Shown here: in pieces, positions 2,628-59,966 of the stretch | Numbering within the stretch: the stretch's first letter is position 1 | How the letters are laid out: each line of letters opens with the position of its first letter | Source: a virus | Direction: 5' to 3' (one strand) | Virus record (IMG/VR): IMGVR_UViG_3300029554_000001 | Length of the DNA stretch: 64,000 nt | Notes under the pieces: model-generated | Database searches by the model: none | What the model saw: only the letters and a program-made list of their open reading frames with translations | Told to the model about the DNA's origin: nothing | Translations under genes and position numbers: made by a program

Positions 2628-2947
2628 TCTTTCGTTAAATGTTTAAGAAAATCTTGTTTTATTATGTTAGAAATAAAATAAGCAATTGTTTTCCAAGCTG
2701 GTTGACTAAGACTATAAACGCAAGGAACAAATAATTCTTCATAAATAAATGATTCATCTAAATGTTCGTGAAAAATCAAATCATTAAGAGTAGGAATCTT
2801 AAAAACAAAAGTAAATCCATCTCCTCTTGTCCAATTACAGTCAATTAAATTGTTAAAACAAAAAAAGGAAGAATCAGAATAATCTTGACTAATATCCTGA
2901 GTTAATTTATCAAAAAGTTCTTCACAAAAATCTAAATAATTCATCAT
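2609..2947 (-). CDS. hypothetical protein
   Basis: 112-aa ORF that overlaps both neighbouring genes. Confidence 0.55.
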   Translation of the reverse strand: MMNYLDFCEELFDKLTQDISQDYSDSSFFCFNNLIDCNWTRGDGFTFVFKIPTLNDLIFHEHLDESFIYEELFVPCVYSLSQPAWKTIAYFISNIIKQDFLKHLTKDWVFPL

Positions 2948-3585
2948 AATTTTATATCTTTCTTAATAACTTCTCTTTTACCATCAAGTCCAACAATAAT
3001 AACATCTTCATTCTTAGTATTAAGAATAACAAAAGGTCTTTGGACACCGCAACAATTCTTTTCAGCAGCTTCAAGAGCAGTAAGAATATGTTGTTCAGGA
3101 GTAAAATCTTTCATATATTTAGTAGTAGCATAAAGACTTCCTTTAGCAGTTACCTCACCACAACCGACAGCAGAATAACCAGTCAAAGGTTCAAGAACAG
3201 AATAATCATTCTGAATTTCATAAAGTTTTCCATCAATACCTACTAAGAAATTACCACCTTTATCTCCATTATCTTTAATACCATTTTCAAAAAGAGTAAT
3301 AATATTAGGAACAAAAGTAGTAACCATATATTCATGATTTACTTTAGTTTCACCAGAAGGAATTTTATATTTATCAATCTCAGGAAATAAAGTTTTACTA
3401 TATTTAAGCAAATCAATATGTCTAAAAGTAGAAGTACTACCCATAACAACATTTTTCAAAGTAGTATTTCTAAATACTTTAGGATTAGATTCGACATCTT
3501 GAGTATAACCATTACTACCAAGGCTATCTGCACCAATCCAAGTGACATTATTTTTCTTATCCGTAAAACCAACGATACAAGTCAT
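2944..3585 (-). CDS. Ntn-hydrolase, proteasome beta / HslV-like protease
   Basis: N-terminus MTCIVG places Thr directly after the initiator Met. Size of 213 aa and the GSTS and GCG segments fit the proteasome-type fold. Confidence 0.45.
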   Translation of the reverse strand: MTCIVGFTDKKNNVTWIGADSLGSNGYTQDVESNPKVFRNTTLKNVVMGSTSTFRHIDLLKYSKTLFPEIDKYKIPSGETKVNHEYMVTTFVPNIITLFENGIKDNGDKGGNFLVGIDGKLYEIQNDYSVLEPLTGYSAVGCGEVTAKGSLYATTKYMKDFTPEQHILTALEAAEKNCCGVQRPFVILNTKNEDVIIVGLDGKREVIKKDIKL

Positions 3586-8928: not shown

Positions 8929-9835
8929 AGATAAAACCAAGATTGGCGAAAATGTTAAAGCAGAAGCAACAATTTGGAAACAATATCAACATATAAATCC
9001 AGAAGATTCTCCAGAAGAAATTAAAAGGAAAGAATTTCTTAATTCTCTCTTAGCTGATAAAAAGCCTTATTTTTTCCGATACAAATATAACACTTTAAGT
9101 AAAGAATACAATGAATTTGTTAAGAAAAACGACCAAGATTGCCAGCTTAGATTTGCTTGCTCTTTAAAAGAGTTGTTAGCTAAAGATGAGAATTTATTAA
9201 ATGAAAGTCAAAAAGAATTTATTAGATATTATAAACATTTTCTTCCTGTGGTTGATTCTAATTGTGTGATGAATCAAATTTGTAAATATATTGAAAATGT
9301 TGATTTCCATATTAGAGAAAAAGTACGTTCTTCTCAAAACTTTGATTATCATACTTTAATGTCTGATGGTTTTGTAATTAATAAAAAGATATATGAACAA
9401 ATTAACGATTTAGTATCAAGTAGAATTAAGGAATGGGCAGCTAAAAGAACAGAAAAAGTTCTTGACGGAGCATTTGCAAGTAAGACAGTAAATCCAAGCA
9501 AGGTTCTTGATAGAGATTTAGAATATAATATTTTAAGACAAGATTTATTAACTAATATTTGTTCTAATGAAGAACAATTAGCAAACCATTTAATATATTT
9601 ATTTTATGTAGATAAACAGTCTTATAACAAGAATATTCTTTGGGCTTTAGTTGGAAGACAAATATACGAGAATATAAGAAAAAAGACCTCTGTTTATTAT
9701 TTTCCTCAAAAGAATCCTAATGGTTCTTTAGAGTTTTTATATGAGAAGTATTCTATTGAAAGAGTGCTTGTAAGTCATGAAGAGGAAATTGAAGAAGAGG
9801 AAAAAGGTATAAAGGAGGAATCTTTTTATGATTGA
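8929..9835 (+). CDS. RdRP/YonO-type RNA polymerase, exon 2
   Basis: Open upstream of track ORF 9173..9835 back to the proposed 3' splice site; TGA stop. Confidence 0.55.
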
Positions 9836-10862
9836 CATTTATGATGAAGAGGGTTATATTCAGGAAGTTCTTTAGAATGGTTTTTCTCAAAAATGGTAGA
9901 GAGATGCTGCTTTATTGGTAAAGTATTTTAAAACAGAATATGCACTTGGAAATTAGCCTTCTTGGAATAAAGAATGGGTTAAAGAAACGATTAAAGAAAA
10001 GTGTAAAAAGTATGTACCAACTTATGACCCTAATGTAACTTTTAATAGAGTTAATAAGTTGGTAGATACAACTTGGAAGAATTGGAAAGTTGACCCTGAT
10101 AACCTAAAAGAATCATCTTAGCTTAGGAAAATAAAAGAGATAAAAATTCCCGAAGCGGTATTGAACTGGTTTTTAAATCTTGATACATATTATATAACAG
10201 ACGAAGAAGTAAAAGATATTAAATCAAGGCGTAAGAATGTTAGTGTAAAGAATCACCCAATTACAATGGCACGAGCTAAATATTTATTTACTTTATATGT
10301 ATGGACAAAAATTTAGGAAAACTATTTAAGTAGACCTAATATACATTATCTTGAGAAATATAATAAGAAGTTAAGAAATGATGCTGATTTAAAGCCAAGT
10401 TTTTCTCTCACGAAAGAAAGAAACGTATTATTTGATTTAGGATTCATAGATATAAATCATGGACTTGGAGTAACTCCTATATTTATGGACAAAGAGGATT
10501 TCAAAGAAGCGGAGAAAGATGAAAAGGTAATTTTATTGGGTCGGAATGACCTCTATTTGTGCGGAAAATGGCTTGAAATGAGGAAATTCGGAACTTTTAA
10601 GTGTCAAAAATGTCGGAAATTATTGCCACGTTCGGCAAATAAAAGAGGTTAGCCAAGAAAATATTGTGAAGAATGTGCAAAATCTTTGAAAACACATACT
10701 AACGAAAAATATTATTGCATTAATTGTGGAAAAGAAATTGAACATAATAGTGTAACATAGAGAATTCATAAACGTTGCGCAACTTGTCAAGACCTTTATC
10801 GTAAAATGAAAGACAGGGAAAGAAAAAGAAATTTGGAAAATTCCACAAATAAGGCGATTTAA
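9828..10862 (+). CDS. hypothetical Cys-rich (zinc-ribbon) protein with 7 in-frame TAG codons
   Basis: Its ATG overlaps the polymerase stop (ATGATTGA). A 344-codon frame has no TAA or TGA. C-terminal CxxC pairs are present (CQKCRK, CEEC, CINCG, CATCQ). The gene is invisible in the standard-code track. Confidence 0.6.
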
Positions 10863-49687: not shown

Positions 49688-50695
49688 TTGGCAATATCTA
49701 AAGAGTTACAAGCTAAAATGGAAATGTACGAACAAGCCTATTTCGGTCTGGATTTACCAGTGCCATTTAAAGGCTTGTTAATTTATCCAGTTTTAACGAA
49801 AGATTACTATAATTTTTATGCTAATTTATCTTGTTTTACTCAAGATAAAAATATTAAAGAAATAAAAGTTGTAGATGAAAATGGAATAGAAACTACTAAA
49901 AAAGTGGCTAATCCTGAAGGTATTGGTATGTCTTATATGGCATATTTAATATAGAATATGGAAAACCAAGAATATGGACCTATGGTTACTTCTTAGGTAA
50001 TTAATATGTTCGAACTTGTGCTCCATGAAAAAAATGGTTTGTTTTGTCCTCATTGTGGATTCAAACGAACTTAGTTTGAAGTTATCAAAGAATATGCTAA
50101 ATTCCAAGAAACATTACCTGATAATTTAAGCGAAACTGAAAAGAAAGTTAAAGCTCTTGAGTTTATTAATAATTATGCTATATGTCCAGAATGTAAAAAC
50201 AAAATGAGAGATATCTATGGAATTCAAACGGGTGCTAATGGCGTGAAAAAATTATATATATACGATATAGTTTTAGAACCAAAAGAACTTGATGAATTTA
50301 TAGCTATTATTACACACCAAAATATTTTGGATTACGATGGAGATAGGTATATCGACCCCAATTTAAGAGAAGAAATGGAATTAAAGGCGAGGATGCAGAA
50401 CAAGAATTACACATCTCCAAGTTTGGAAAAATAGCTTGTCTGTATATCCATTAGTTCTCCATACACTATGGAGATGTTAAAAGAACAAGTAAGTTTGAGA
50501 AAACTTTCTTTAATGCTAAAAACCATTGATGCTAAGGGGTATTATTACGCTTAGATTTAGGGTGCTATGTCTCGGATGGTTTAGTTTAAGGATGGAGACA
50601 TTCACCATTGGATATTTACTGATAACAAGAAGGATATGTCTAAGGAAATTATGACAATGAATGATTTCCAAAAGAAGTTTGCTTCTGTTACATAA
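49688..50695 (+). CDS. hypothetical protein with a CxxC...CxxC zinc ribbon
   Basis: TTG start. Track ORFs 49688 and 50204 share one frame, joined by about 7 TAGs. The TAA overlaps the next ATG. Confidence 0.5.
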
Positions 50696-51501
50696 TGGAG
50701 AGAAAAGTGGAAAAATTTACGACTGAAGAAAAACAAAATATTATAAAAGAATATGAGTCTGGATTGTCTTCTGGATAGCTGGCAGAAAAATATCGGTGTA
50801 ATAAATCGACAATTTGCGACATTCTTAAAAAGAATGGAGTTAAAGCAAGAGATGGACATTTTAAGAGATAGTATTCTTTTAATGAACATTATTTTGACAA
50901 AATTGATTCAGAAGATAAAGCTTATTTTTTGGGTTTGTTATTTGCTGATGGATGTAATTTAAAAGAAAGAAATGTAGTTTGTATTGAGTTGGTAAAAACT
51001 GATTCTGCTATATTAGAAAAATTTGCTGAAGTAACTGAAAATAATAGACCATTGTATGATTATAATCACAAAAATGGTTAGACTTCTACAAAATTAAGTT
51101 TTACTAGTAAATATTTTTGTGAAATTCTTGATAAACTTGGATGTGTACCAAGGAAGTCTTTGGTATTGCAATTTCCAGATTATTTAGACAAATCTCTTTT
51201 AAGACATTTTCTTAGAGGATATTTTGATGGAGATGGAAGTATTACTTTATATAGAGGTAAAAGTACGATTAATCGGCAAGCTTCTGTAGTAAGTAGTAAA
51301 GATTTTATAGAATCTCTTAAAGAAAAAATAAACCAAATTAACCCGAACATACATTACATTACTAGGTCAACTGGTAATGGAAGTAGTTTGGTTTTATGTA
51401 GGAAAGATTCTATTAAAGAATTTTTATCTTATATTTATGAAGACTGTTCTATATATTTAGAAAGAAAATTTCTAAGATATCAAGAACTAATAAATAAATA
51501 A
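50695..51501 (+). CDS. free-standing LAGLIDADG homing endonuclease with an N-terminal HTH
   Basis: LGLLFADGCN and LRGYFDGDGSI motifs; three in-frame TAGs. TAATG overlap with the upstream gene. Ends 15 nt before the tail tube start codon. Confidence 0.75.
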
Positions 51502-51522: not shown

Positions 51523-51910
51523 CGGATGCCGAGTCCGCATTTGCTTGGCTAAAGAGTAACCGTATACAGTGATGTGTATGTAAAAATAGTCTTTGAATTG
51601 CTGGAATTCCCTAAAGCTGTTTATGCTACAACAAAAGGATGAAATATGCCTAATTGTGAATGCTACGAAAGTAAAAAGAAATAAACAGATGATATATGGT
51701 TAAATCCTAAGTGTTGAATAATGGGTAATCAGCCGCTAAGTCTTGAATAAAGAAAAGTTCAACGACCATTTCGAAAGGAAGTATACCACAAGTGATTGGT
51801 GGTAGAAGTGGAGACTGCCTTTTAATAAAAGGTAATGATATGGTCTAATCTTATATGAAAATATAAGGCGAAAGCAAAATAAGAGTAGCGTCTTATTTTA
51901 AATTAAAATG
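51523..51910 (+). mobile_element. group I intron E, without an ORF
   Basis: Same core as introns A-D (TTGCTGGAATT...GCTACGAAAGT...ATGGTTAAATCCTAA...AATCAGCCGCTAAG...GTTCAACGACCATT...GATATGGTCT). P10: TTGGCTAAAG pairs with the exon 2 start TTTTAGCTGG. The omega G is at 51910. Confidence 0.75.
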
Positions 51911-52938
51911 TTTTAGCTGGTGTAGGCCGCGCCACTCTTCTCGATGGCGAGCGCCTTGTTGCTACTGCAAATACTCTGATTGATTCTAGTATTACTATTG
52001 GAATCAGCTTCGAGGACCTGCGTGCTGGTATGGGCAATAAGCTTTATGGTCGTTATGCGCATACTTCTACTTTTGACCTCAAGCTGACCGATGCCATGTT
52101 CTCTCTTGAGTATCTTGCCATGAATACTGGTTCTGAGGTTGAACTCGGTGGTGACGCTATGAAAGACGAGAAGCTCACTGCTGATGCTACTGGTAAGGTT
52201 ACTTTGTCTTATAAGGCTGTTCCTATGGTTGGTAATACTAATGTTTATGCTTATATTAAGAAGTCTGGCACCGACGAAGGCTATCAGCGTTATGCTGTTG
52301 CTGGCGATGGTGTAAATGAAGTTTCTCTTGGTGAGGCAATGAAGGATGCCGAAGTTTGTGTTCGTTATATGTATCATAATGATATTGCTTCTAAGATTAC
52401 CATTAGCGCTAACTTCATTCCTAAGACTCTGACTTGCATTCTTGAGGCTAATCTTTACAACGGTGGTTCTTGTGATGTTGAGACCTCTACCCTCGCTGGT
52501 AAGGTTATCATTAAGGTTCCTCGTTTCATGCTCAACGGTTCTCAAGAACTCAGCATGAGCGCTTCTGGTGTTTCTAACACTTCTATTGAAGGTTCTGCTC
52601 TTGCTTCTGGTTGTGCTGGCTGCGACGGCGACGGCGTTTATGCTGAAATCGTTCAGGTTCTTGAAAACAAGACCGCCGCTGACATGTTCGCTAGCATTGT
52701 TATTGAGGATAAAAACCAGACCGCAAAGGCTGGCGATAAGATTGAACTTAACGTCTATGCTTGCCCTGTTGATGGTGCTCCTATTAAGTTGAATCCTGAC
52801 CAGTATACGGTTGCTGTTACCACTGGTGCTAGCACTTATGCTAATGGTGTCGTTACCGTTGTGGATACTAGTGTCGTTACTGTTAAGTTTGTCCCTAATG
52901 ATAAGCTTTCCGACACTATGAATATTACTGTTGCTTAA
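51911..52938 (+). CDS. major tail tube protein, exon 2, with a C-terminal Ig-like (Big_2-type) domain
   Basis: The spliced product reads MLF-LAGVGRATLLDGERL... The frame is open upstream of track ORF 52030..52938, has no TAG, and shows biased codon usage. The C-terminal KAGDKIELNVYA...VTVKFVP resembles Ig-like domains of tail tube proteins. Confidence 0.6.
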
Positions 52939-52967
52939 TTTAATTAACGAACAGGAGATTAAAATAA

Positions 52968-53135
52968 ATGCTTTGCAGTAATGCACAGCAGGAAAATGGT
53001 GGAAGAATAACGTGCAGAGTCGATGGGAAAGAACCTCATCGGCTCTGTCCTTATCAAAAATATTGTCATTAGAAGTGTGCATGGGAAAATTCTCCTGCCA
53101 TGACGAGCTGTGAGAGGAGATTAAGAAATGGATGA
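52968..53135 (+). CDS. small Cys-rich protein
   Basis: 55 aa with one TAG. Overlaps the next gene by 8 nt. Confidence 0.35.
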
Positions 53136-53499: not shown

Positions 53500-53513
53500 T
53501 GACAAATAAACTG

Positions 53514-53541
53514 AGGATGGGGTTAATCCCATCCTCTTTTT
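53514..53541 (+). terminator. rho-independent terminator
   Basis: GAGGATGGG-GTTAA-TCCCATCCTC followed by TTTTT. Confidence 0.8.
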
Positions 53542-53562: not shown

Positions 53563-53670
53563 GTGAATTTTATTTGGTGAAACAGGTGTGTTTTTCCCTT
53601 TAAAATCAAGGATTTTGAAAAGTATCTTTTTGATGAAGATTTTATTCGGTAAAGATTTTTCTCAAAGTCC

Positions 53671-53699
53671 TTGACAAAAATTCAAACATTTGGTATATT
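53671..53699 (+). promoter_or_regulatory. sigma70-type promoter
   Basis: TTGACA (53671-53676), 17-nt spacer, TGg TATATT (53694-53699). Confidence 0.6.
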
Positions 53700-53833
53700 A
53701 AATATGAAAAATATTAAATGGAGGAAGTGAAGGCGAATCTACAACATGAGTTGTATATACTTATATTAATTGTTAATTATTGAAGGTAATAATTAAAAAA
53801 TATAAGTTCCTATAATAAAGTAGGGGGTTAATT

Positions 53834-55282
53834 ATGAGTAAAAGCAAAGACAAGATTAGAGTAAGTTTTAAAAATTCTGGAGCGGCAGAAGATGTAACAG
53901 GTTCTTGTACTGTTATTACATGGGGAAAGCCAGAACGAACAATTCTTGTCGATTGTGGATTGGTACAAGGTAATCAAAGTCTTTTGAAAGAATATCAGGC
54001 TAATAGTGCAAGATTTACATTTAAAGAGAAGAATGTAGATTATGTATTTGTGACCCATTCGCATGTTGACCATTCAGGTCGTTTAAGCCTTTTAACCAAA
54101 AGAGGATTTGATGGAAAAATTATTGTGCCTGATGGTAATAAAGATTTAATTCGAGAATTGCAATTAGATAGTGCTAAGATTATGTTAAGAGATGTTGAAG
54201 ATTTGTCTCGAAAACTTAAAAGGGAATATTCTCCGATTTATGAAGAATCTGATGTAAAAGATATGCTTACTCATATTGAAGAATATCCTTTTAAGGAAAG
54301 AATTAAATTAGACGATGATGTAACATTTGAGTTTATTCCTTCTGGACATATTGTTGGTGCTGCTCAATTGATTCTATATATCAAAAATGGTAGTGTTACC
54401 CGTAAAATAGCGTTTACTGGTGATTTAGGTAATATTAGAACCGAAACTTATTATGCAAATAAGTTTGAACCTATTCAAAATGCAAATTTGTTAGTGGGTG
54501 AATCTACTTATGCCAGCAAAGAAAAAAGTGCTAAAGCAAAAGATAGAGAAAAAGATTTAGAAAAGATTAAAACTTTTGTGTATGATGTTTGTATTGATGG
54601 AAAAGGAAAGTTACTTTTTCCTTCTTTCTCTTTAATGAGAAGTCAAGTAATTTTAACCATTCTTTACGAAATGTTTAAAGATGACGAGAATTTTAATATT
54701 CCTGTTTATGTTGGCTCTCCTTTAACTTGTAAAATTAATAAAATTTTTAATGAAATTTTAGAGGGTGAGCAACTTAAGAGATGGATTGAAGCTTCTTCAT
54801 GGGATAAGGTTAAATTTATCAATAATTATGAAGAGATTGAGCAAATTTTAGTAAAGCCTGACCCAGCAATTTTTATTTCTAGTGCAGGAATGCTTAACGC
54901 TGGTTTTGCTGTAGGTATTGCTGAAAAGCTCCTTCCAAGTGCTAAGAATGGAATTGCATTTATTGGGTATTCTGTTGAAGGGTCTTTGGCTTGGAAAATT
55001 AAACAAAAGAAGACTAAGACCGTTGCCATTAATGGAAAACAAATCCTGAGTCGTTGTAGAGTAATTAACTTAAATAGTTTTTCAAGTCACATGCAAAGAG
55101 ATGAGCTTTGCGATTATTACAGCGGTGGTCTTGGAACTAGCGGTTATGGTAAAGTTGTCCTTCAACATGGTAATATGAAAGATAGAGTTGAACTGAGTAA
55201 AACTTTATCGGAGCTTATTAGTAAAAGAAATAGAACAGACAAAGTTGTTGTAGCTAATAAATCAACAGAAATTTTATTGTAA
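53834..55282 (+). CDS. metallo-beta-lactamase-fold / beta-CASP nuclease (RNase J / CPSF / SNM1-like)
   Basis: HSHVDHSG (HxHxDH) motif; 482 aa; C-terminal SSH...motif region; no TAG codons. Confidence 0.75.
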   Translation: MSKSKDKIRVSFKNSGAAEDVTGSCTVITWGKPERTILVDCGLVQGNQSLLKEYQANSARFTFKEKNVDYVFVTHSHVDHSGRLSLLTKRGFDGKIIVPDGNKDLIRELQLDSAKIMLRDVEDLSRKLKREYSPIYEESDVKDMLTHIEEYPFKERIKLDDDVTFEFIPSGHIVGAAQLILYIKNGSVTRKIAFTGDLGNIRTETYYANKFEPIQNANLLVGESTYASKEKSAKAKDREKDLEKIKTFVYDVCIDGKGKLLFPSFSLMRSQVILTILYEMFKDDENFNIPVYVGSPLTCKINKIFNEILEGEQLKRWIEASSWDKVKFINNYEEIEQILVKPDPAIFISSAGMLNAGFAVGIAEKLLPSAKNGIAFIGYSVEGSLAWKIKQKKTKTVAINGKQILSRCRVINLNSFSSHMQRDELCDYYSGGLGTSGYGKVVLQHGNMKDRVELSKTLSELISKRNRTDKVVVANKSTEILL

Positions 55283-55296
55283 TTAAATAATTGTAT

Positions 55297-55318
55297 AAAA
55301 AGCTTCACAAAGCTTTTT
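55297..55318 (+). terminator. rho-independent terminator
   Basis: AAAAAGCTT-CACA-AAGCTTTTT. Confidence 0.7.
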
Positions 55319-55319
55319 A

Positions 55320-55818
55320 AATAAACCTATTGACACAAGAGGTCAGGGTTGCCAGAGAAGTTGTATATTGGGCTACCATCCAGTGATGCAATGGAGGCTT
55401 ATTAGGGTTGTCAGGTTTCCACAGGGTAGCAATTAAAACTGTCCGACCAACATACTTTCATGCGTGGTTTCAAACGGAAGAGAAAGGCGTTTTAAGGTGT
55501 CGGCATAAACCTTATCATCTTATATACCATGTTGTATATTTAGACCAGCTACGAGGCATAGTCTTGCAGCTTTTTAATGTGGTGTCCATGAGCACAGGAT
55601 AAGGACTTAAAGAAGACCAAATTTACGGGTTCGTAAAACGGGTCTGAGCCATATATCTCATGTACCATGTGTACAAGGAGTTCCTTAAGACGTTAGAGTT
55701 TAGCTTTAGCGTTTTATGCAATGAAAAAGGTGAGACAGGGAGTAGCTACCTTTTGTTTTGCCCCAACAAAACAATTATCATCTTTTTCATTTTTAATTAA
55801 GACTTGGGGGTTTTAGTT
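55320..55818 (+). ncRNA. candidate large structured noncoding RNA, family not recognised
   Basis: About 500 nt with no credible ORF and visibly more G+C than the surroundings. Nested hairpins include AGACC-AAAT-TTACG-GGTT-CGTAA-AACG-GGTCT, GTCCGACC...GGTGTCGG, GCTACC...GGTAGC, AAAAGGT...ACCTTTT and GTTTTG-CCCCAA-CAAAAC. Confidence 0.4.
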
Positions 55819-57069
55819 ATGGGAATACAAGAATTTAATACTGAAACAAAGTTAACTTGTGCGTAGATTAGAGATGGGGAAACTCTATTTTATTCTAAAA
55901 AGACAGGTAATAGAAAACCTATTATATGGGGAGTATATTTTATTAGAAATATGCAAAATAATAAGGTTTATGTAGGTTCCTCCAATGATATAGTTAGAAG
56001 ATGGAAAAACCATTGTAGTGATTTAATTTATTAGAATCATATAAATAAGCATCTATCTGCGGCATGGTTAAAATATGGGCAAGATAGTTTTGTTTTTGAA
56101 TTAAAAGAAATTTATGAACCAAATGATAAATTTGATAAAAAAGAAAATTTAGATTGTCTTCGTAAAAGAGAACAGTATTATATAAATTTATATGATACTA
56201 GTAATAATAAAAAGGGGTATAATGAAAGCAATTTAGCGACAAATCCTTCTATTAATGTTACTGAAAAACTCCTTAATGGAGAACGAGCAATATCTCCGTA
56301 GCAGTTTTACAAAGTTGTTGATTTACTTTTGAATTCTGAGTTGAATTTAAGAGAAATTTCAGATGAAACTGGAGTAAAATATACTACTGTTAAAGATATA
56401 TATTAGAAAAGAGAGTATAAAGAATTATTAACTGGTTATAATTTTCCTGTAAGAAGTAATGATAAAACTGATAAGTTAAAGCGAGAGCATTGGAATGATA
56501 TAATGAATTTATATAATTTGGGAATGCCCGCTGAACAAATCAGCAGAGAAATTAATTGTGGAATTAGCGTGCTAAAAAATCTTTTAAGAAAAGAGGGTAT
56601 TCCGTTTGGTGTGAATAAGCCTCGTTATTTTATTTTTGATTTATATGGTAATTTAATTGGAAGTTATTTTAGTTCTTCTGACGCTGGAAAATTAATTGGA
56701 TAGAAAAGTTAGACTATTGTATCAGCGGCAAATCATGGTTGTTTGGTTGATAAAAAATATAAAATTTCAAAAAATCCAGAACCACCATCTTTCACTGAAA
56801 CAGAAAAAATATTTGGTCATTATATTTCATCTTTTGGGAAAAGTATCATTGCTGTTGCTTATAAAAATGGTAAGCCAGACAAGGTTTATAACGGCATAAG
56901 ACCAACTTTTTCAGATAAAGATGCAGAAAAAATTATAGATGCTTTAAAACAAAATAGCAATGAAGAAATTTTTGGTTATACTTGGAAACGTCTTGAAGAT
57001 GTTCCCGATTTAGACAAATAGATTTTAATGAATAAAAATTTAAAGGTTAAAAAAGGTGTTTTAAAATGA
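55819..57069 (+). CDS. free-standing GIY-YIG homing endonuclease with C-terminal DNA-binding modules
   Basis: GVYFIRN..NKVYVGSSNDIVRRW..H...YGYN-like core. Track ORFs 56503 and 56743 are in frame. About 7 in-frame TAGs. The TGA overlaps the ClpP-like ATG. Confidence 0.65.
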
Positions 57070-57727: not shown

Positions 57728-59038
57728 ATGGCTTTAGTTACAGATAAAGTACCCGAAGGTTATCTTCGTGAAATGCGTCAATTAATGATGGATATTTCAA
57801 ATGGTGACGCAACTTGGAGTAATGCAAACGATATTCGTAAAAAGTACGGTTTGCCTTCTCTGACTATTGATACAATTCGTAGAGGTGCGCTGCTTTATTC
57901 TGAATTTAATGCTTCAGGATGGGTTAACGAACCTGTTAATAAAAATATTCCTACTAAGAATACTACTACTTTAGATAGGAACGGTGTGAGAACGAGTGAG
58001 AAATTCGTAGCTTTGTCAGAAGATGAGCTTACGGATAAAACTGCTCTTTTAAAAGCACATGGTTATAATCCCGTTCAGTTTGAATTGCTTAATGCTAAGA
58101 ATAGTATTTGGCAACAAGGTGATGGCAAAGGTGGTTTGAAGAATCTTTATTCTTCTCGTATTACTGTAAAGCCTACCGATTGTGGCTTGGATTTAGAAGA
58201 GCTAAGAAAATATTTCGAAGGTTTTAAATCTCCTCGTAAGACAGAACATATTAGAGGAGATATTAGCAACAAACCTAATGTAGTTTTCTTCAGTCATCTT
58301 GATGTACATTTTGGTAGAATTTCTCAGCCTTATGAAACAGGAGTTGAGTATAATATGGAAATTGCAAGATAGAATATGCTTTCTACCACTAAGAAGATGA
58401 TTGATTCTGTTCATTGGAATAATGTGGGAAAGATTATTTATATGGTTGGTAACGATTATCTTAACAGTAGCTTTACTGGTTACACAACAAGTCAATCTCA
58501 CATGCAGGATAACGAAGGAACTTTTAATACTATCTTCAAAAAAGGCACAGAAGCTTTGATTGAAGTTATAGATATGCTTAGTAGAGTGGCGCAAGTAGAA
58601 GTTGTATTTGTTTCTCGGAATCACTCTCGATTTGAAGAATTTGCGTTAATGCAGATAATTGAAGCGTATTATAAAAATGTAGAAGAAATTAAAGTTGATG
58701 CAAGTCCTTTCCCAAGAAAATATATTAGAGTTGGCAAGACTCTTCTTGGTTTGACTCATGGTAGTGATGAAAAAGACCGTATTAATGGTTTGATGCAGAC
58801 CGAAGCTAAAGAAGATTGGGGGCAGACATCTTATCATTATTGGTTGTGTGGTCATTTACATCACAATGATTGGGCTTTAAGAGAAAATTATGGTGTTTCT
58901 ATTTTCATTCTTTCCGCCATGACAAAGATGGATAATTGGACTACAAAGAGTGGATATACTATGGCTGATGCTGGATGCATTGCTTTTGTTTTTGATTATG
59001 ATAAAGGACTTAGTGATATTAAGTTCTATTATGTTTAA
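57728..59038 (+). CDS. calcineurin-like metallophosphoesterase with an N-terminal extension
   Basis: Motif I (HLDVHFG) lies before, and motifs GNDY, SRNHS and CGHLHH after, an in-frame TAG at 58370-58372 that joins track ORFs 57728..58372 and 58376..59038. Confidence 0.7.
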
Positions 59039-59429: not shown

Positions 59430-59966
59430 ATGAATAAAGGAAAAGCTTTTGAAAAGGATTTTCAAGAAGCGGCTAAGAATGATGAGCTGTTTGTGTTAAG
59501 GTTACATGATACTTCTTTATCTTGGCAGCATGAAAAAACTTCAAGGTTTCAACCTGAGAACCCCTGTGATTTTTTGGTATATGAACTTCCCAATTTATTT
59601 GCTATTGAGTGTAAAAGCACTTGTTATAAATCTTTGACTATACAGAGAGATATAAAAGATAAAGCTTCTAAGATGATTAAAGCTCATTAGATTAACAGTC
59701 TGGTGAAATTTGCTCAATAGGAGGGGGTATTTGCTGGTTTTTTATTTAATTTTAGAGATGATGAAGACATTTCAAATAATGTAACTTACTGGTTATCTAT
59801 ATAGAATTTTAGTAAATTTTTATGTGAAAATGATAAACAATCCATTAATAAATTAGATTGTATTCAATATGGAGCAATTATAATTGAACAAAAAATAAAG
59901 AGAACTCATTATACTTATAATATAAAGAAAATGCTTGAAGATATTAGAAAGGAGGAAATTAAATAA
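59430..59966 (+). CDS. RecU-like PD-(D/E)xK Holliday-junction resolvase
   Basis: ...PCDFLVYE...LFAIECKS... nuclease motif. Three in-frame TAGs extend track ORF 59430..59690. Confidence 0.6.

Follow-up and report, generated by a model that had tools for sequence, protein, structure and literature searches.

The drum RNA family (Rfam RF02958) was described with a Rho-independent terminator directly 3' of it (PMC5737381), and phage arrays of transfer RNAs (tRNAs) and non-coding RNAs may carry drum, ROOL or GOLLD RNAs. Another kind of small phage RNA, the theta ribozymes, which are minimal ribozymes of the hepatitis delta virus (HDV)-like type, lies at the 3' ends of phage tRNAs (Kienbeck et al. 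2024, PMC10879173), and a catalogue lists about 10,000 candidate viral RNAs (PMC10690425). Here we analyse a non-coding interval in a 64,000-nucleotide (nt) stretch of viral DNA (IMG/VR record IMGVR_UViG_3300029554_000001), referred to in full as the window; unless stated otherwise, coordinates are those of the window, and stretches used for comparison carry L numbers. The interval (55283-55818) lies between a gene for a beta-CASP nuclease and a GIY-YIG homing-endonuclease gene. We consider it probable that it is a phage stable-RNA island, a row of separately folding small RNA modules on the plus strand. The proposed order is a drum RNA, an element that we call A, a degenerate copy of a second element (HP) ending in the terminator-like hairpin T1, a V domain, a canonical HP element whose second hairpin (HP2) doubles as a terminator, and a terminator-like three-way junction termed unit 3.

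The interval is non-coding, as a preliminary description of this locus had stated, even when TAG is read through: its plus strand contains no open reading frame (ORF) of at least 70 amino acids (aa) under code 11 or with TAG read as glutamine. The raised G+C content that had been remarked on was also found, at 0.40-0.425 over 55300-55699 compared with 0.28-0.36 in the flanks. RNA structure, suspected from the many hairpins, is evident on the plus strand of 55321-55800, which folds at z = -2.62 (1 of 100 shuffles was as good), compared with z = -0.63 for the minus strand. Since only the plus strand folds in this way, the RNA reads from left to right, as the genes do. Rfam was searched with cmscan in two ways, at the gathering score over the entire window and at E-values up to 10 over 55200-55900. 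GOLLD and ROOL, which had been named as possible relatives, failed to match in either search, while a ROOL positive control in L057 scored 328.8 bits. Apart from drum, the only matches in the region were TarB and PVT1 at chance level; no tRNA-clan match pointed to a tRNA or transfer-messenger RNA. The earlier remark that a group I core is missing here was correct, the sole Rfam group I match of the window lying at 51556-51867. Thus, of the large structured RNA first proposed, the non-coding character, the plus-strand structure and, as shown below, compensatory changes in four modules held up; a single GOLLD- or ROOL-like RNA did not.

The first module, at 55350-55446 on the plus strand, matched drum RNA in a short 97-nt form that is devoid of the optional internal hairpin. 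The match is full-length (model positions 1-112) and scored 43.6 bits against a gathering score of 43, with E-values of 7.3e-5 in the window and 8e-7 in a search of 701 nt. Six close relatives gave 41.9-44.7 bits, and five of them reach the gathering score (L003 scored 41.9). In the cmscan alignment, the conserved drum blocks GAA, GGAG, GGGUUGU, ACCNCAA (CCACA) and AAAAC are present together with helices P1 and P2. Pairs in P2 are kept despite one-sided changes (U-G to U-A in L004 and G-U to A-U in L012), and one G of GGAG is changed in L004. Reference drums, collected by pattern scan and confirmed with Rfam, scored 86.8, 80.9, 70.6, 52.7 and 50.3 bits, the same short form giving 50-53 bits in L053 and L057.

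Since the score margin is thin, we looked for a feature that the model does not score. In bona fide drums the P2 loop pairs with the 3' tail that follows ACCNCAA in an inferred pseudoknot, which is outside the scoring of the Rfam model; in the window these strands are GCUACC (55372-55377) and GGUAGC (55425-55430). The comparison covered five full-length drum lineages, the 5'-truncated L043 being uninformative. The longest cognate loop/tail duplexes measure 6 base pairs (bp) in the window, 5 in L047, 6 in L048, 4 in L052 and 7 in L057, compared with 2-4 bp for non-cognate loop/tail pairs among the same five drums. The helix GCTACC/GGTAGC picked out in the preliminary description is therefore this pseudoknot, each strand being complementary only to its own partner across drums. 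Because the window keeps the pairing of loop and tail with its own sequence, the drum call appears sound. Judged on these comparisons, the module is a true drum; the known family thus gains a new member, one that is unusual in being fused to other modules.

No terminator directly follows the window drum: its end (55446) overlaps the start of element A (55445), and not until T1 at 55547-55575, about 100 nt downstream, does a hairpin have a U run on its 3' side. Short-form drums in tRNA arrays (L053 and L057) likewise have no evident terminator directly after them. Drums have been described as associated with a particular nearby protein family (PMC5737381); here the neighbours of three other drums had no Pfam family in common (AAA_21, HD and HTH, one each). 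In L048 (10445-11886), the 80.9-bit drum and a gene for an AAA_21 (AbiEii-like) ATPase share a strand, with the drum directly 5' of the gene.

Element A (55445-55513, plus strand) was defined from an RNAalifold consensus as three hairpins with nearly invariant loops: H1 at 55445-55469 (GACCA/UGGUU and CAU/AUG), H2 at 55472-55492 (AAACG/CGUUU) and H3 at 55494-55513 (AAGGU/ACCUU). Among 15 distinct sequences, all 270 of 270 cells are paired and four pairs show compensatory changes (A-U/C-G, C-G/U-A, A-U/G-C and G-C/A-U). None of 500 shuffles reached the score, and slid controls paired in 25-52% of cells. A different helix listed for this segment in the preliminary description, GTCCGACC/GGTGTCGG (CCGAC/GUCGG), overlaps H1 and H3. 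It is possible in a single sequence and present in the minimum free energy fold, but the relatives give it no compensatory pair and two breaks (L006 and L008), and so lend it no support. Element A and its flanks (55443-55532) are retained at 88-92% identity in L008-L010, where the nuclease is only 71-81% identical. In relatives fetched via the nuclease gene it follows that gene, except in L016 and L017, in which a homing-endonuclease gene lies between the two. Scans of viral, genome and local sequences confined element A to this phage family. Mimicry of a CRISPR (clustered regularly interspaced short palindromic repeat) repeat was considered and rejected, the core 20-mer finding only the phage contig itself and one chance match in 185,579 species genomes.

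The canonical HP element lies at 55655-55719 on the plus strand, scores 70.1 bits with the covariance model built for it (R1) and folds at z = -3.82. Its first hairpin, HP1 (55657-55680), reads CUC-A-UGUAC-CAUGU-GUACA-AG-GAG and is nearly invariant; the second, HP2 (55686-55716), is variable in sequence and in the window is followed by a U run, hence its terminator-like appearance. A degenerate copy at 55517-55575 begins AUCUUA-UAUAC-CAUGUU-GUAUA and ends in T1 (55547-55571) with a U5 run. R1 matched it over 55517-55567 (14.5 bits, E = 0.16 in a 733-kb search); a repeat finder independently paired 55517-55532 with 55655-55670 at 88%. T1 is the second hairpin of this copy, and four of four substitutions in relatives keep or improve its pairs. 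It was the only site returned by a consensus scan for terminator-like sites. Direct repeats had also been reported for the interval: AGGGTTG(C/T)CAG and GTTGTATATT do exist, but by our own estimate an 11-mer with one mismatch is close to chance in 536 nt. The informative repeat is instead ATCTTATATACCATGT (55517)/ATCTCATGTACCATGT (55655), which marks the two copies of one element.

Pattern scans recovered the HP motif in 26 viral and 42 metagenome stretches (G+C 31-51%), and HP1 was always followed by a hairpin of variable sequence. The element occurs in at least 60 distinct sequences; in an alignment of 60 of these, 97.7% of the cells pair, compensatory changes affect 10 of the 15 pairs, and none of 500 shuffles reaches the score. 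Since an exact 22-23-nt pattern was used for collection, the invariance of HP1 is partly a matter of ascertainment. In diverged copies, UGUAC/GUACA is replaced by UCUGC/GCAGA or UCUAC/GUAGA in the second SPbeta copy, a Vibrio phage and phage P1, and by UAUAC/GUAUA in the window at 55517-55543, with the loop CAUGU and the CUC/GAG flanks constant. This covariation of the stem indicates that HP1, too, is an RNA helix. The resulting consensus is A-[G/U]-CUC-A-UNUNC-CAUGU-GNANA-AR-GAG followed by a second hairpin that varies in sequence and has C-G/G-C pairs at its top. By eye, HP1 also recalls a CsrA site, an anti-Shine-Dalgarno sequence and a Cas12a repeat, likenesses that we regard as unsupported. 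Rfam 15 holds no match to the element at E-values up to 10. Inspection by eye showed no U run after roughly half of the HP elements, among them the ones inside tRNA arrays.

HP often follows closely on a tRNA. With tRNA ends set by ARAGORN, the distance from a tRNA 3' end to the start of HP is 0 nt in L094, L104 and L083 and 2-4 nt in L070, L076 and L067, and the 5' end of a tRNA follows HP2 within a few nucleotides in L083, L067 and L064. Inside a tRNA array (L053, L057-L059), HP lies 24 nt 5' of a drum. A run of the unrelated phage L057 (306-6748) carries, in series, an HP element, a drum, tRNAs, the ROOL RNA (2811-3404) used above as a control, and more tRNAs. In L069, a promoter (TTGACA-17-TATATT) ends 5 nt 5' of the element, and in L032 the element closes an RNA of roughly 290 nt driven by the promoter TTGACA-17-TGnTATAAT. 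L032, although unrelated to the window, has an HP element, unit 3 and a drum all within 4 kb, which argues that these modules travel in the same kind of island. From these placements we conclude that the element, as collected by sequence, is widespread in phages and starts where another predicted stable RNA ends, be it a tRNA 3' end, element A, the V domain or a terminator.

Cultured phages carry it as well. R1 scored 42.1 bits in phage P1, 50.8 bits in Vibrio phage 1.084.O, and 42.0 and 27.4 bits for two copies in Rhizobium phage TM30. The P1 copy occupies an unannotated spot between pmgF and rlfB (NC_005856, about 52,912-52,977, complement; L107 1499-1564); it ends the pmgF unit with a U5 run after it and adjoins rlfB and rlfA, of which rlfA is annotated as encoding a DUF3800 protein. 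A blastn search against cultured phages matched SPbeta-type Bacillus phages over 44-46 nt (about 93% identical), located in the unannotated 1.7-kb yonN-yonK gap, 60-80 nt 5' of a match to DUF3800-VIII RNA. In SPbeta itself the element is at about 59,538-59,595 of NC_001884, on the complement strand. A 1-nt insertion between identical flanks in the SPbeta comparison excludes a shared peptide. The gap (L001 1767-3447) is G+C-rich and non-coding and holds two tandem HP elements (2946-2998 and 3005-3062) and the DUF3800-VIII RNA match (3126-3191, 47.5 bits). DUF3800 proteins are described in the literature as having an RNase H-like fold and being linked to defence; none is encoded within about 10 kb in the window. 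In Rhizobium phage RHph_TM30 (L105 1138-1672), two HP elements lie between YrlA-like matches (two, both short of the gathering score) and a tRNA-like RNA in one non-coding block, and this block lies directly 5' of a TROVE (Ro60-like) gene. We read the TM30 block, from its gene context, as a stable-RNA cluster tied to RNA quality control.

Between the two HP copies lies the V domain (55577-55654, plus strand), a less constrained structured spacer with an outer helix (55577-55583/55648-55654) and two inner hairpins, which folds at z = -2.58. Substitutions are denser in V than in the drum or element A, and changes in its outer helix are consistent in three cases and inconsistent in one. The nested helix AGACC...GGTCT (55614-55645) of the preliminary description fared unevenly: its inner hairpin takes only wobble changes, but its outer stem is broken in several relatives.

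Unit 3 (55725-55795, plus strand), defined from 13 distinct copies, is a three-way junction with a U-rich tail, formed by P1 (55725-55733/55778-55786), P2 (55737-55739/55749-55751) and P3 (55753-55759/55768-55774) and joined by the conserved strands GACAGGGAGUAGCUACCUUU and AAUUA. Compensatory changes affect 15 of its 19 predicted pairs, and it folds at z = -2.66; it has no Rfam match at E-values up to 10. The GTTTTG/CAAAAC hairpin that had been seen in the sequence is real, since it is the covarying P3, whereas the AAAAGGT/ACCTTTT helix is probably not a functional pairing because it competes with the covarying P1, made of AAAAGGUGA (55725-55733) and UCAUCUUUU (55778-55786). A pseudoknot between ACAGGG (55734-55742) and the P3 loop (55760-55765) is possible, with UCCUGU, UCUUGU and CUCCC in relatives; in the window the pairing is GGG/CCC only. 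Further copies of unit 3 occur elsewhere in relatives and in L032. By Pfam, unit 3 lies directly 5' of homing-endonuclease genes of the GIY-YIG type in the window and of the HNH/NUMOD3 type in L032; a GIY-YIG-type motif was read by eye after unit 3 in L008 and L016. Within the close family, endonuclease-plus and endonuclease-minus genomes bear different versions of unit 3. In L016 (8360-8440) and L017 (1330-1410), an extra unit 3 with an apparent GIY-YIG gene, read by eye, replaces the terminator of the nuclease gene. Unit 3 and the endonuclease may thus form a mobile cassette, or unit 3 may be the target of the endonuclease.

The set of modules differs from genome to genome. L009 has only element A (with another hairpin), L010 has A and HP, and L008 has A and unit 3 with an endonuclease gene; none of these three has a drum. 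The drum, A, HP and unit 3 are found in L077 and L097, A, V and HP in L092, and the complete set of the window in other relatives. The segment with the degenerate copy and T1 is missing in L077, L097 and L092, while V is present without T1 in L092 and missing in L010, L077 and L097. Since the modules are kept or lost in varied combinations, they behave as independent small RNA domains. In these alignments each module is conserved for its predicted structure and is gained and lost independently among relatives.

The stable-RNA island that we favour would lie between an RNase gene of the CPSF73-like beta-CASP type and a homing-endonuclease/ClpP block. It would be transcribed rightward, either by read-through of the weak terminator of the nuclease gene or from an unrecognised phage promoter, and the transcript would be cut into small stable RNAs acting in trans on host or phage RNA metabolism, by analogy with tRNA/ROOL/drum arrays. 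The HP element would punctuate the 3' boundary of each stable RNA: the invariant HP1 may be recognised by a partner that Gram-positive and Gram-negative hosts share, and HP2 could also terminate transcription in hosts that rely on intrinsic terminators. A candidate for the processing enzyme is the beta-CASP RNase encoded next to the island. More broadly, and as a tentative proposal that we rate below an even chance, HP would be an undescribed and very widespread class of phage RNA marking the 3' boundaries of stable RNAs (tRNAs, drum, Y-RNA-like RNAs and element A) through a partner common to these hosts, with element A and unit 3 as two further new families, the latter linked to endonuclease insertion. 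The boundary mark would, for instance, signal processing, protect 3' ends or act as a decoy, in place of theta ribozymes next to tRNAs. The three elements have no counterpart in Rfam, and no description of them, nor of a hairpin motif of tRNA arrays, was found in literature that did not extend to the 2023 viral-RNA catalogue.

Several observations weigh against this island. The promoters, RNA ends and processing are all inferred. No sigma-70-like promoter was found 5' of the drum, where a promoter scan gave a TTGACA at 55331 with no -10 box at usable spacing, and there is no room for one between the modules; the row may for that reason be transcribed as a single long primary RNA, or might even function as one RNA. 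No tRNA occurs in the window. The link to the beta-CASP nuclease is suggested by adjacency in one phage family only, and L032, SPbeta and phage P1 have HP elements with no beta-CASP gene nearby. The drum score is barely at the threshold in the window and below it in L003, and the immediate terminator described for the family (PMC5737381) is missing. Finally, the HP alignment (A8) was fitted to its model, so the pair counts lean its way, and its instances were ascertained by pattern.

An attenuated form of the preliminary idea is that the drum, A, V and HP are domains of one composite functional RNA some 370-450 nt long, reaching from about 55345 to 55716 or to 55795. The modules abut within a few nucleotides with no recognisable promoter between them, element A runs straight into HP in L010, L077 and L097, the HP element of L032 ends a promoter-driven RNA of roughly 290 nt, and the whole plus strand folds better than shuffles. 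We nevertheless regard a composite RNA as unlikely, given that the modules occur in many combinations, each also alone or in unrelated contexts, that the terminator-like T1 stands in the middle, that the supported helices are all local with none joining two modules, and that ROOL, GOLLD, OLE and other large Rfam RNAs gave no match. The same hairpins could alternatively act in cis, as a cascade of terminators or attenuators (T0 of the nuclease gene, T1, HP2 and unit 3) that insulates the nuclease gene from the ClpP/phosphoesterase block or meters how far transcription reads through into that block, with unit 3 as a landing pad or expression control for the endonuclease. Four hairpins in series on the coding strand, each with a U run, would suit such a cascade, as would the place of unit 3 directly 5' of endonuclease genes, its different sequence in endonuclease-plus and endonuclease-minus genomes, and the P1 element with its U5 run at the end of the pmgF unit. 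Yet the drum and element A, whose loops hardly vary and which include a pseudoknot, do not outdo shuffles in folding (z 0.86 and -0.08, respectively), unlike simple terminators; the HP element of L069 is driven from its own promoter; and HP elements inside tRNA arrays do without U runs, so termination is not the core role of HP. We therefore consider the cascade improbable.

Much less weight falls on a DNA-level function, whether a replication origin, as the preliminary description had also suggested, or a protein-binding palindrome or recombination site. HP1 does contain palindromic DNA (TGTAC...GTACA and CATG), the HP-bearing regions of SPbeta and L032 adjoin HU-like and metallophosphoesterase genes, and the P1 copy is near rlfB/rlfA, annotated as possibly linked to lytic replication. 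However, the interval has only two-copy short repeats and no iterons or repeat arrays; G+C and A+T skew do not change, the cumulative skew rising steadily, and G+C is raised rather than lowered. Folding is strand-specific, the orientation of HP is fixed relative to tRNA genes, and compensatory and G-U-tolerant changes and the 1-nt loop insertion fit RNA hairpins better than protein half-sites. A DNA site is accordingly very improbable, and an origin finds no support here. A small protein has, in our judgement, scarcely any probability. The candidates are a 64-aa ORF (55408-55602), which the preliminary description had already distrusted, and a basic peptide of 11-30 aa from ATG 55460 in element A (MRGFKRKRKAF...). 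For the latter, the ATG and the next 10 codons are largely conserved, and three substitutions in distant relatives look synonymous or conservative (CAA/CAG, GTC/ATC). But no purine-rich ribosome-binding site precedes the short ORF, which in the window family reaches a stop at codon 12 and elsewhere runs for 20-30 codons. Close relatives show R-to-C and R-to-W changes in it, and the positions at which it varies coincide exactly with the covarying ones in the hairpins of element A. The 64-aa frame is broken by TGA and TAA in L003, its substitutions peak at codon position 2 (33, compared with 12 and 17 at the others), and L008-L010 lack most of it, keeping only 55443-55532.

The interval belongs to a gut jumbo phage whose long plus-strand genes mostly use TAG as a sense codon (a code-15-like recoding): the summed length of plus-strand ORFs rises from 9,376 to 14,937 aa once TAG is allowed, and seven in-frame TAG codons each are present in the genes at 55819-57069, 9828-10862 and 49718-50695. 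ARAGORN found no tRNA gene in the window, hence no suppressor tRNA there. Close relatives are contigs of about 215 kb from IMG/VR and human-gut assemblies, one of them binned as a genome of 'uncultured Clostridium sp.'. The upstream gene (53834-55282, plus strand) encodes a 482-aa beta-CASP metallo-beta-lactamase nuclease of the CPSF73/TTHA0252/IntS11 type (Pfam Beta-Casp 9.7e-19, Lactamase_B 8.7e-13); its top phmmer matches in PDB were CPSF3, ribonuclease TTHA0252 and Integrator 11 (E 1e-38 to 1e-29). It is therefore predicted to be of an RNA 3'-end-processing type and a candidate enzyme for the neighbouring RNAs. A canonical promoter (TTGACA-17-TGgTATATT, 53670-53700) lies 5' of this gene, so at least some phage genes use host sigma-70-type promoters, and an ordinary terminator is found at about 53513-53540. 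The terminator-like hairpin of the nuclease gene itself, T0 (55297-55318, plus strand), was read from the sequence as AAAAAGCUU-CACA-AAGCUUUUU; because it has only two G-C pairs, read-through is plausible. Loop changes in L003 and L007 turn it into a perfect palindrome.

Directly after unit 3, the GIY-YIG homing-endonuclease gene (55819-57069, plus strand; Pfam GIY-YIG 5.7e-13 on the translation with TAG as glutamine) is missing in most close relatives: of those aligned, only L012 carries it, and in the others unit 3 runs into the next gene, which in the gene order of the window is ClpP. ClpP and then a phosphoesterase-like gene follow it in the window. A metallophosphoesterase-like gene lies at most about 2 kb from the HP-bearing RNA region in the window (57728-59038), L032 (2307-3488) and SPbeta (yonJ), joined by an HU-like gene in L032 and SPbeta; this neighbourhood could be conserved, or could simply be a shared early/DNA-metabolism module. 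The 436-aa phosphoesterase-like protein of the window is only 21% identical to SPbeta YonJ (E = 0.014), and the nuclease has no relationship to YonJ. The group I intron elsewhere in the window (RF00028, 58.4 bits) is preceded by a LAGLIDADG-type gene (50695-51501); L002, L006 and L008 share the intron, and L010 and L011 carry a group II intron instead.

Drum RNAs, without a known function since 2017, gain here a concrete setting for tests, with fused modules, an RNA 3'-end nuclease gene and a TAG-recoded phage. The HP element is the most interesting by-product owing to its presence in phage P1 and SPbeta: a short RNA absent from Rfam 15 that is common to phages of Gram-positive and Gram-negative hosts and, like the theta ribozymes described recently, is positioned at tRNA 3' ends. 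Because P1 and SPbeta are genetically tractable, experiments are immediately possible. If HP is a processing or decoy signal, it would bear on the maturation or protection of the tRNAs and other stable RNAs that phages encode, in the fight over host translation.

Compared with known systems, the likeness to Rho-independent terminators lies in the hairpins with U runs (T0, T1, HP2 and P1 of unit 3) and in the U tail after HP2 in phage P1, SPbeta and the window; unlike terminators, the 28 nearly invariant nucleotides of HP1 and the junctions of unit 3 are conserved beyond what termination needs. With theta ribozymes, HP shares a location 0-4 nt from phage tRNA 3' ends and an occurrence in a TAG-recoded gut phage. 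A theta or HDV-like ribozyme was nevertheless rejected, since HP, compared by eye with descriptor-delimited examples, has no P3/L3 (ACC-U-CC-NCGY-GGU), P1.1 GG, J4/2 CUAA or 3' strand of P2; it also has no conserved C after HP2 and consists of two simple hairpins. The HP 22-mer is absent from the supplementary lists of theta ribozymes (PMC10879173). YrlA (RF02553) and other Y-RNA-like RNAs come close in that the TM30 copies share a block with YrlA-like matches 5' of a TROVE gene, but the window has neither, and HP has no Ro-binding stem or tRNA-like domain. The first module resembles drum RNA (RF02958; PMC5737381) in its full-length match, conserved blocks, P1 and P2, its loop/3'-tail pseudoknot and its occurrence in phages from Firmicutes-type gut communities; it differs in scoring at the threshold, in its short form and in having element A fused to its 3' end instead of a terminator. 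The interval also resembles the phage tRNA/ROOL/GOLLD/drum arrays, which are similarly dense rows of structured RNAs on one strand with little spacer and which also contain HP and drum. The island of the window, unlike them, has no tRNA, ROOL or GOLLD, has element A and adjoins a beta-CASP RNase gene. By this analogy, our best reading is that it would be the tRNA-less counterpart of the tRNA/ROOL/drum arrays of other phages.

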